DNA from: a virus
Lineage: Duplodnaviria > Heunggongvirae > Uroviricota > Caudoviricetes
Virus record (IMG/VR): IMGVR_UViG_2534681992_000031
Length of the DNA: 9,656 bases
Strand: one strand, 5' to 3'
Position 1 is the stretch's first letter, and the number at the start of each line of letters is the position of its first letter. Positions 7,037-9,117 of the stretch are shown here, in pieces. The position numbers were made by a program, and so were the translations under genes. Below the pieces are notes generated by a model. It searched no databases and had not been told where the DNA came from. It was given only the letters and a program-made list of their open reading frames with translations.

Positions 7037-7231
7037 ATGCCAGAGAACAACACCAGAAAGCCGGATAAAAGTGCCACGGTACACATAGACGCCGGAACTA
7101 TGGAGAAGATCGAACGCTATCAGCAGTTCATCAAAGATAATCACCCGGGTATGCCAGTGCCCACGAAAGGACAAATCACACGCAGCGCGGTTGAATACTG
7201 GTACAGGGCAACGTTAGGAGCCTGGCTATGA
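7037..7231 (+). CDS. Small hypothetical protein (~64 aa), possibly RHH-like DNA-binding, translationally coupled to the protease-capsid gene
   Basis: GGAGG RBS (7026-7030) before the ATG at 7037, preferred over the ORF-track start at 7004; stop TGA 7229-7231 overlaps the capsid ATG at 7228. Secondary-structure-like pattern (strand TVHID, helix AGTMEKIERYQQFI, helix QITRSAVEYWYRA) is only suggestive. Confidence 0.45.
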   Translation: MPENNTRKPDKSATVHIDAGTMEKIERYQQFIKDNHPGMPVPTKGQITRSAVEYWYRATLGAWL

Positions 7232-9117
7232 AAACATGGTTTTCCATTAAGGCTATGGCAGATGTTGTACATGTGCGCATTTATGACGAGATCGGCGGGT
7301 ACGGTGTAAAGGCATCGGCACTTACTGACGAGATCAACGCGTGCGGTAATGTGTCTGAAATCCATCTTCGCATCCATTCACCTGGTGGCGACATCTTTGA
7401 AGGGCTGGCTATCTATAACGCCCTGAAAAATCATCCGGCAAAGAAAATTGTACACATTGAAGGCATGGCGGCTTCTATGGCCTCGTTTATTGCCATGTGT
7501 GGCGATCACATCGTTATGCCTGAAAACGCGATGATGATGATACATGCCCCCCGTGGTGTTACTGCCGGAGTGTCGGGCGACGTTCGCCGCTTTGCTGACC
7601 TGATGGACAAGCTGGGCGACACGATGGCGGAAACCTACGCCGGAAGAACGGGCAGGAGCAAACAGGAAATCACCGCCATGATGGAGGCGGAAACCTGGAT
7701 GGATGGCAATGAGTGTAAGGCTAACGGCTTCGCAGATGAGGTTATAGCCGCGATTACAGCAATGGCCCGAATTGAATCAAAACGAATCGGAGATTTTTCA
7801 AATATGCCGGAAAAAATTAAAAGCATGATCAGCCAGAAAACTACCAGTGGCGAACAGGAACGACTTAACGGCATCCGTGAATTGTTTGGCACGTTCAACG
7901 GAAGATATAACGACCTGGCTATAAGTTGTCTTGCTGATTCAGAATGTAGCGTTGAGAATGCACGCGAACGCCTTTTACTCGCTATGGGTAAAGAATCAAC
8001 GCCAACAAACAAAACCACCCCCGCAAATCTTTACTACGCGTACACGGATAACGGCAACATAACCGGCGATGCAATGCGCCAGGGGCTTAATGCGCGTCTT
8101 GGTCACGAACGGGCCGAACGCGGTAATCCTTACGCCATGATGAGCCTTTTCGATATGGCACAGGCATCATTAACCCATCGTGGTATAAGCACGGGCAGCT
8201 ACGGCACACGCTCGCAGATAGTAAACGCGGCATTCACCCACAGCAGCAGCGATTTTACCGATATTCTTGCTGGTGGCGCTGAAAAATCAGTGCTTGCAGG
8301 CTGGGAGCACAGCGGCGAAACATTCCGCCAGTGGACGAAAAAAGGTTCCCTTTCAAACTTCCGGGAAGCCCGCCGCGTTGGTATGAATGGCTTCTCAACG
8401 TTAAACAAAGTGCCGGAAGGGGCAGAATATAAATACATCACCACCAGCGATCGCGGTGAACCCATCGCGCTGGCTACTTACGGGAATATTTTCAGCATTA
8501 CCCGCCAGGCGATAATCAATGATGACCTTGATCAGTTATCAACGGTGCCAATGGCTATGGGCCGTGCTGCATCAAGAACGGTGGGAAATCTGGTTAATCT
8601 GGTGCTTACAGGCAACGTAAAACTTTCTGACGGAATAGCGCTGTTTGACAAAAAACACAGCAACCTGATTGAAGCAGGACTGACAACACCGGGACTTAGT
8701 GCAGCACGTCACCTGATGCGCACACAGAAGGACAAAAATGGCGAAGTGCTGAATATTGCGCCTAAATTCCTTTTAGTTCCGGCAGCACTGGAAGATCGCG
8801 CGTTGCAGATGATTAACTCAACCGCACCTTTCGGGGCTGATAAAAACAGCGGGATCTTTAACCCGTATCACAAGCTACTTGATATCATCGTCGATCCCCG
8901 CCTTGATGATATCAGCGAAAAACAATGGTACATGCTTTCCGCACAGGGAACGGACACAATCGAGGTGGCTTATCTTGATGGCAATGACGAGCCTTACCTT
9001 GAACAGCAGGAAGGTTTTATCGTTGACGGCGTGGCCTGGAAAGTCCGTATTGATGCAGGTGTGGCAGCTCTGGATTATCGCGGTATGGTCAAATCAGGCG
9101 GGACAGATTCACTCTGA
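7228..9117 (+). CDS. Fusion of prohead (ClpP-like, S14) protease with HK97-fold major capsid protein, 629 aa
   Basis: N-terminal ClpP-like motifs: HSPGGDIFEGLAIYNAL, the Ser motif GMAASMAS and the His motif MMIHAP. The C-terminal ~400 aa has HK97-family capsid character (FREARRVGMNG, ITRQAIINDDLDQ, PKFLLVPAALEDRALQM). Followed by a strong terminator. Confidence 0.85.
   Translation: MKTWFSIKAMADVVHVRIYDEIGGYGVKASALTDEINACGNVSEIHLRIHSPGGDIFEGLAIYNALKNHPAKKIVHIEGMAASMASFIAMCGDHIVMPENAMMMIHAPRGVTAGVSGDVRRFADLMDKLGDTMAETYAGRTGRSKQEITAMMEAETWMDGNECKANGFADEVIAAITAMARIESKRIGDFSNMPEKIKSMISQKTTSGEQERLNGIRELFGTFNGRYNDLAISCLADSECSVENARERLLLAMGKESTPTNKTTPANLYYAYTDNGNITGDAMRQGLNARLGHERAERGNPYAMMSLFDMAQASLTHRGISTGSYGTRSQIVNAAFTHSSSDFTDILAGGAEKSVLAGWEHSGETFRQWTKKGSLSNFREARRVGMNGFSTLNKVPEGAEYKYITTSDRGEPIALATYGNIFSITRQAIINDDLDQLSTVPMAMGRAASRTVGNLVNLVLTGNVKLSDGIALFDKKHSNLIEAGLTTPGLSAARHLMRTQKDKNGEVLNIAPKFLLVPAALEDRALQMINSTAPFGADKNSGIFNPYHKLLDIIVDPRLDDISEKQWYMLSAQGTDTIEVAYLDGNDEPYLEQQEGFIVDGVAWKVRIDAGVAALDYRGMVKSGGTDSL

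Follow-up and report, generated by a model that had tools for sequence, protein, structure and literature searches.

A ClpP-like protease/HK97-fold capsid fusion gene on an Escherichia coli phage-inducible chromosomal island

Protease-capsid fusions have been described as 'common in small-genome siphoviruses' (PMC9671004); the paper on the cyclic oligonucleotide-based antiphage signaling system (CBASS) concerns protease-scaffold fusions, not capsid fusions. Among the reference Gram-negative phage-inducible chromosomal islands (PICIs), 21 of 29 carry a capsid gene, which is their commonest late gene (PMC10111431, PMC6092414), and some PICIs with a CLP_protease gene are on record (PMC10111431). 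EcCICFT073 is mobilised by phages lambda and phi80, and EcCIO42 is a reference PICI of Fillol-Salom et al. 2018 (PMC6092414). Here we analysed a stretch of 9,656 nucleotides (nt) of viral DNA (IMG/VR record IMGVR_UViG_2534681992_000031, Caudoviricetes; hereafter the window), which belongs to a satellite of this EcCICFT073/EcCIO42 type and carries a gene encoding a ClpP-like protease and an HK97-fold capsid protein as one polypeptide. The fusion is a real single gene, but its family and the E. coli satellite have both been described before. Added here are the status of the satellite fusion as a separate lineage, the selection acting on its three parts, the naming of helpers, the bracketing of the gene by cos-like sites and satellite-specific differences in the linker and in an upstream open reading frame (ORF). 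The gene and its parts, in amino acids (aa) of the product, are as follows.

7228..9117, plus strand: ClpP-like prohead protease / linker / HK97-fold major capsid protein fusion gene, 629 aa (NCBIfam NF045540)
7228..7767, plus strand: protease domain, aa 1-180, with Ser83 at 7474-7476, His106 at 7543-7545 and Glu155 at 7690-7692
7768..8052, plus strand: linker, putative internal scaffold, aa 181-275 (AlphaFold2 (AF2) model, homolog comparison and dN/dS)
8053..9114, plus strand: aa 276-629, capsid part of HK97 fold; helices at its N-terminus, strands of the E-loop and, at aa 435-462, a spine helix

In the ORF listing of the window the gene is one uninterrupted frame with an ATG start. Pfam assigns aa 42-174 of the product to CLP_protease (E 5.6e-33) and aa 331-623 to Phage_capsid_4 (E 8e-55), and the fusion is full length in 143 of the 144 complete E. 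coli genomes carrying the satellite gene; the single protease-capsid polypeptide proposed in a preliminary description of this DNA was thereby confirmed. The ClpP-like Ser and His motifs placed there in the N-terminal part also held up, since the domain lies within the first ~175 aa and contains Ser83 within GMAASMAS and His106 within MMIHAP, both of which fall on the catalytic Ser and His when aligned with solved ClpP structures. In the same alignment Glu155 occupies the position of the ClpP catalytic Asp. Of 75 diverse family members, 73 have a residue at the Ser83 position and 74 at the His106 position, and all of these keep the Ser and the His, respectively; position 155 was Glu or Asp in 70 of 75. 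The AF2 model of the fusion protein is continuous and confident, and together with fold searches it confirmed the ClpP-like and the HK97-type fold; the latter, along with the Phage_capsid_4 match, puts the capsid domain on the C-terminal side, as had been suggested. A PDB sequence search with the whole fusion protein returned ClpP chains only and no capsid relative, and ClpP matches likewise dominated the Foldseek results with the full model. When the ORF was scanned for in-frame internal starts, aiming at a nested gene in the style of lambda C/Nu3, the only candidates with a Shine-Dalgarno-like sequence were at aa 158 and aa 193, and no claim made here rests on either of them.

The fusion protein scored 891.1 bits on NF045540 (scaf_prot_MCP1, 'ClpP-like prohead protease/major capsid protein fusion protein'; cut-off 475) and 202 bits on NCBIfam NF045542 ('head maturation protease, ClpP-related'), and it matched phrog_133 over its full length with 936 bits. 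An identical protein (P0001) already bears the NF045540 product name in NCBI. In an exhaustive search of 1.84 billion cluster representatives, 5,719 clusters were obtained at E <= 1e-30; there are also protein clusters of 573 and 1046 identical or near-identical members, and among the best 150 cluster representatives at 50% identity nearly all are fusions with a length of 617-795 aa. Eighty phage records match it over at least 80% of its length, with 50-52% identity in the best-scoring records listed. Family members in phages include gp05 of mEp460 and the fusions of cdtI, Ayreon and the long-tailed Shiga toxin (Stx) phages Stx2_95 and VT1-Sakai. In mEp460 and Stx2_95 the genes of the head module follow the order terS, terL, adaptor, portal, fusion and decoration, without a second capsid gene. 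Because the fusion is the only capsid gene in these modules, the fused architecture works as a capsid gene; it is the working sole capsid gene of ordinary plaque-forming lambdoid phages and no satellite speciality.

To judge from its divergence, the satellite fusion forms a lineage that is both separate and old. Its identity to phage and helper copies is 53-55%, and the best identity found among 50,697 phage records was 51.7%. In a second PICI lineage, found in islands of the same kind at two chromosomal locations, the fusion (P0093, 637 aa) is 62% identical by BLASTP and 64% by global alignment. All three parts of the satellite fusion are under strong purifying selection: between satellite alleles at dS 0.42-0.54, the protease has a dN/dS of 0.12-0.13, the linker one of 0.10 and the capsid part one of 0.05-0.07.

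The linker is 48-50% identical to that of phage homologs. Phage versions have a Pro/Ala-rich segment of ~30-35 aa between the protease and the helical linker, which is missing in the satellite fusions at aa ~203; in the 75-member alignment, region 176-212 of the satellite fusion comprises 36 aa, compared with a family median of 70 and a minimum of 28. The AF2 model predicts linker helices at aa 184-189, 195-202, 207-221, 228-236 and 242-255 and a disordered stretch at aa 264-275, which is a candidate region for maturation cleavage. A scaffold role of the linker is plausible from the model, and such a role is also implied by the NCBIfam short name scaf_prot_MCP1.

The genes surrounding the fusion form a PICI gene set, in agreement with the earlier proposal that the host element is a phage satellite, and identify the element as a classical Gram-negative PICI. 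The main ORFs of the window all lie on the plus strand, with the integrase at the left end:

1-1239, plus strand: integrase (Pfam Phage_integrase and Arm-DNA-bind_3)
1649-1858, plus strand: AlpA (Pfam Phage_AlpA)
3521-3895, plus strand: DUF4222/RgdR homolog, 124 aa, RGD motif at aa 20-22
3816-5570, plus strand: primase (Pfam D5_N/DUF5906)
5583-5810, both orientations: field of GGTAGA/TCTACC iterons, about a dozen by eye
6166-6576, plus strand: gene for single-stranded DNA-binding protein (SSB), intact in the window
9375-9656, plus strand: last ORF, 93 aa (phrog_1561), right-end gene of the island

The iteron field is dense, closely follows the primase gene on its downstream side and contains a perfect inverted repeat of 16 nt (5592-5607 / 5786-5801); it is probably the replication origin of the PICI. 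From the integrase gene to the 93-aa last gene the island measures ~10 kb. E. coli O145:H28 RM12581 holds the same island with 98% identity between cspD/yljB and clpS, with nothing extra inside, and the island of E. coli 042, also at the cspD/clpS site, carries the fusion gene at 98.6% nucleotide identity. Neither the window nor the full island (RM12581, 042) contains portal, terminase, head-completion, tail or lysis genes, as judged from ORFs, Pfam and PHROG. The preliminary description had suggested that a self-processing precursor would let a satellite build heads with very few genes. A capsid precursor is the likely reading, but the satellite cannot build heads with the fusion alone, because the island is without portal, terminase, head-completion and tail genes.

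Some details of the island concern other genes. The 93-aa last ORF is 78% identical to the last gene of EcCICFT073 and is kept at the right end whatever the capsid module. It was considered as RgdR and ruled out, as RgdR is a 99-aa DUF4222 protein (ECs1581/C1493), described as a regulator of LEE, the enterocyte effacement locus, and type III secretion in enterohaemorrhagic E. coli (EHEC) (PMC3378721). The DUF4222 ORF of the window has 124 aa as against these 99; an A-run near 3812 is one base shorter than in RM12581 and CFT073, which also abolishes the ATGA overlap of DUF4222 with the primase start. The shortened run may reflect a sequencing error in the homopolymer or be a genuine variant. 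The SSB gene has an annotated internal stop in the RM12581 island (L001 15705-16115) and is a fragment in E. coli 042, so that the replication module decays in some island copies; the fusion remains intact. As to packaging redirectors, no Rpp homolog was present in the window, where two small flanking ORFs gave no PDB match to the solved RppC structure, and the 144-aa RppA was not present in the window either.

Immediate flanks of the fusion were characterised by the following features:

6597..6762, plus strand: upstream cos-like copy, found by repeat search, made of D1 (6597-6711) and D4 (6742-6762), with ACGGGGCGGAGGGGCGCGG at 6638-6656
7004..7231, plus strand: 75-aa ORF (phrog_4934), candidate partner gene, whose stop overlaps the fusion start (ATGA)
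9124..9145, plus strand: GC hairpin GGCGGC-ACCA-GCCGCC followed by TTTTTT, 7 nt past the fusion stop, read from the sequence
9135..9301, plus strand: downstream cos-like copy, found by repeat search, made of D1 (9135-9249) and D4 (9281-9301), with ACGGGGCGGGCGGCGCGG at 9176-9193

The 75-aa ORF had no match in Pfam, NCBIfam or PDB and no tblastn match in the 50,697 phage records. A homolog with 38% identity precedes the fusion in the second PICI lineage, and none was found ahead of the EcCICFT073 capsid gene; the ORF looks like a satellite-specific partner gene. The hairpin past the fusion stop looks like an intrinsic terminator. It was not among the sites reported by a consensus scan; a terminator is annotated at the corresponding position after the fusion of mEp460. 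The two cos-like copies bracket the cassette, are 71% identical over 115 nt with a second block of 21 nt, and both begin at or just past a terminator-like hairpin. Two cos sites have been reported for EcCICFT073 too (PMC6092414).

The cos-like copies also resemble phage sequences. With 84% identity over ~195 nt, the downstream copy matches position 65-259 of locus L016, a lambdoid prophage in which a related PICI is embedded, and L010:1458-1653, both of which lie directly upstream of a phage terS; these matches are in the embedding prophage and in Stx2_95. For the upstream copy, identity to the region before terS is 78-81% over ~110 nt in the L016 helper prophage and in Stx2_95. PICIs with fusion alleles 91-93% identical to that of the window are inserted inside terL of lambdoid prophages (L016 776-14025; also L011, L012 and L013), an arrangement of helper-embedded PICIs that has been described (PMC10111431). 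The head module of the embedding prophage comprises a DUF1441 terS (L016 303-779), terL, a portal of the Phage_portal_2 family, a 651-680-aa fusion and a cement protein, and the satellite and helper fusions at the same locus are 53-54% identical. From these arrangements the natural helpers can be identified, as far as homology tells, as lambdoid phages whose own capsid gene is a homologous fusion. The capsid module matches the head type of the helper, the fusion and the cos of fusion-type phages being found on one island. Counted separately in 5426 complete E. coli genomes, the satellite fusion was present in 144 and the phage-type fusion in 2092 (~39%); potential helpers are therefore abundant. 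From helper-embedded copies and cos homology we infer induction of the island by such helpers, its packaging and its transfer. As a side observation, the second PICI lineage has a 161-aa DUF1441 gene right after its fusion (L005 12171-12656; also L006-L008), and the window has no such gene. The small terminase of the embedding helper prophage likewise belongs to DUF1441, and this gene may therefore be a TerS-derived, Rpp-like packaging redirector.

Taken together, we consider it rather probable that the fusion is a functional self-processing capsid precursor, carried by an EcCIO42/EcCICFT073-type PICI, that assembles on helper portals. This mode of action is proposed because the family must work in this way in phages that have the fusion as their only capsid gene. 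A lambdoid helper of the same head type (mEp460, cdtI or a long-tailed Stx phage) would induce the island, and the polyprotein would be made. Its C-terminal HK97-fold domain would then polymerise on the helper portal, with the helical linker serving as an internal scaffold resembling a delta domain, and the enclosed Ser83/His106 protease would cut off itself and the linker, probably near the disordered stretch at aa 264-275. Helper terminase would finally package island DNA into the shells, cutting it at the two cos sites of helper type that the island carries. Expression timing, self-cleavage, cleavage site, portal assembly, shell composition and capsid size are all points that we infer. Since the catalytic residues and the protease domain are conserved, it can be argued that processing, beyond mere co-assembly, is selected.

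Several points weigh against this proposal. Deletion of c1499, the non-fused, lambda E-like capsid gene of EcCICFT073, or of the decoration gene c1500 left interference with lambda unchanged, and the same deletions left transfer of EcCICFT073 by resident prophages unchanged; moreover, EcCICFT073 is packaged in phage-sized capsids (PMC6092414). Those knockouts concern a different capsid module, with lambda and phi80 or resident prophages as helpers. At 54% identity, the satellite protein may or may not fit the portal, decoration and head-completion proteins of the helper. The function of the island has here been read from its sequence. A consensus scan of 6400-9656 gave no convincing promoter before the cassette of 75-aa ORF and fusion; the region had fewer promoter matches than shuffled controls, and therefore no promoter was assigned. 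In the literature on Stx and mEp460-type phages we found no usable virion proteomics or mature N-terminus for an NF045540-type fusion, and the cleavage site is a guess because processing data for the family were not found there.

A satellite capsid protein can also act on the capsid of its helper. The satellite capsid homolog Ccm of SaPIbov5 takes the pentamers and alters capsid shape and size (PMC8569155), and by analogy the fusion protein could co-assemble with the helper capsid protein, for instance at pentamers, and either yield small capsids that exclude the ~45-kb helper genome or poison helper head assembly. The satellite and helper homologs, 53-54% identical, do share one cell, the linker region of the satellite protein is shortened to 36 aa, and the island has about one-quarter of the helper's size, all of which would suit such redirection or interference. 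However, conservation is as strong in the protease domain, catalytic residues included, as in the capsid part, and a pure redirection or poison subunit should not need a protease, because the helper supplies one; furthermore, the capsids of EcCICFT073 are phage-sized, and interference was not mediated by its capsid gene (PMC6092414). We regard redirection of this kind as unlikely, although still a serious competitor of the self-processing precursor. Mixed shells of satellite and helper subunits are possible and would fit either explanation. Less probable again is that the fusion is a passenger, a late gene captured from a helper by recombination and without a role in satellite transfer. Such capture would agree with the prevalence of capsid genes among the late genes of these islands (21/29) and the dispensability of the one tested (PMC10111431, PMC6092414), with the invasion of some CLP_protease-bearing PICIs at that very gene (PMC10111431) and with the position of the cassette between two cos copies, likely a recombination hot-spot. 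A functionless gene would decay, whereas dN/dS within the satellite lineage is ~0.1 at dS up to 0.54 and the fusion is intact in 143 of 144 genomes; besides, identity to any helper copy is only 54%, and two diverged satellite lineages both keep the fusion together with the satellite-specific upstream ORF.

That separate protease and capsid genes were joined by a frameshift in sequencing or assembly has next to no probability. Many phages do have the protease and the capsid protein as separate neighbouring genes, and in one E. coli genome (hit H75, NZ_AP045176.1 2438758-2439791) the gene is annotated in two pieces, 'Clp protease' and 'phage major capsid protein'; this copy, with 55% of the query matched, is the lone one that is not full length. 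The reading frame is the same in the 143 other complete genomes, so that the sequencing error raised as a possible refutation in the preliminary description is not supported, and the clusters of 573 and 1046 members, the full-length fusions that make up nearly all of the best 150 cluster representatives, the dedicated curated NCBI model and the continuous AF2 model argue in the same direction. A bolder extension of the self-processing precursor, namely that the PICI makes its own, perhaps smaller, shells on stolen helper portals and so has one-gene capsid autonomy, is in our opinion possible but doubtful. By our own arithmetic, which scales capsid volume, a T=4 shell might hold about two island units and a T=3 shell one. 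If this were true, the island would stand between classical PICIs, which steal whole capsids, and capsid-forming PICIs (cf-PICIs), which encode all head and packaging functions, and the short linker and the 75-aa ORF would be adaptations that set shell size or portal choice.

As an identification the finding changes nothing, because the protein family and the island type had already been described. It raises the narrow question why, given that the single tested copy was dispensable, a capsid gene is found in most Gram-negative PICIs at all. For this question the island is a good test case, as a single gene covers protease, scaffold and shell, selection is clear and helpers can be named. Many carriers are Shiga-toxin-producing E. 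coli, and interference with, or piggy-backing on, long-tailed Stx-type phages is therefore of some practical interest.

Compared with phage fusions of the NF045540 type, the satellite fusion is colinear over its full length, with the same three parts, the same Ser, His and Glu positions and 51-55% identity. Unlike them, it lies outside a head operon and is preceded by the 75-aa ORF instead of a portal gene. Like EcCICFT073 and EcCIO42, the island has int, alpA, an Icd-like gene, DUF4222/RgdR, primase, origin, SSB, the 93-aa last gene and two cos, whereas EcCICFT073 has RppA and, in place of the fusion, a capsid gene like lambda E and a decoration gene like D. Ccm is a capsid-protein homolog that is not known to have a fused protease. 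The window fusion resembles it (Carpena 2016; Hawkins 2021, PMC8569155) in being a satellite HK97-fold homolog of the helper capsid protein on a cos-packaged satellite; the role of Ccm as a pentamer former in small isometric capsids has been shown experimentally, whereas our knowledge of the fusion comes from sequence. The element is not a cf-PICI, since cf-PICIs such as EcCIEDL933 (10.1101/2022.09.08.507074) add portal, head-tail connectors, HNH, TerS and TerL, and have separate protease and capsid genes where the window island has one fused gene; by ORFs, Pfam and PHROG, none of these additional genes is present in the window or in the full island of RM12581 or 042. With the NF045541-type fusion family it shares a protease and an HK97-fold capsid in one polypeptide (phrog_4523 match, E 2e-110), but at 384 bits it stays below the cut-off of 525, and that family is a distant branch from different hosts. 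Finally, the role proposed for the linker follows the logic of the HK97 gp5 delta domain, lambda C/Nu3 and P2 gpO, where a head protein includes the scaffold function and the head protease later takes it off. In HK97, however, the protease gp4 is separate and herpesvirus-like, not ClpP-like, and lambda and P2 join their scaffold to the protease but not to the capsid protein (PMC6893505).

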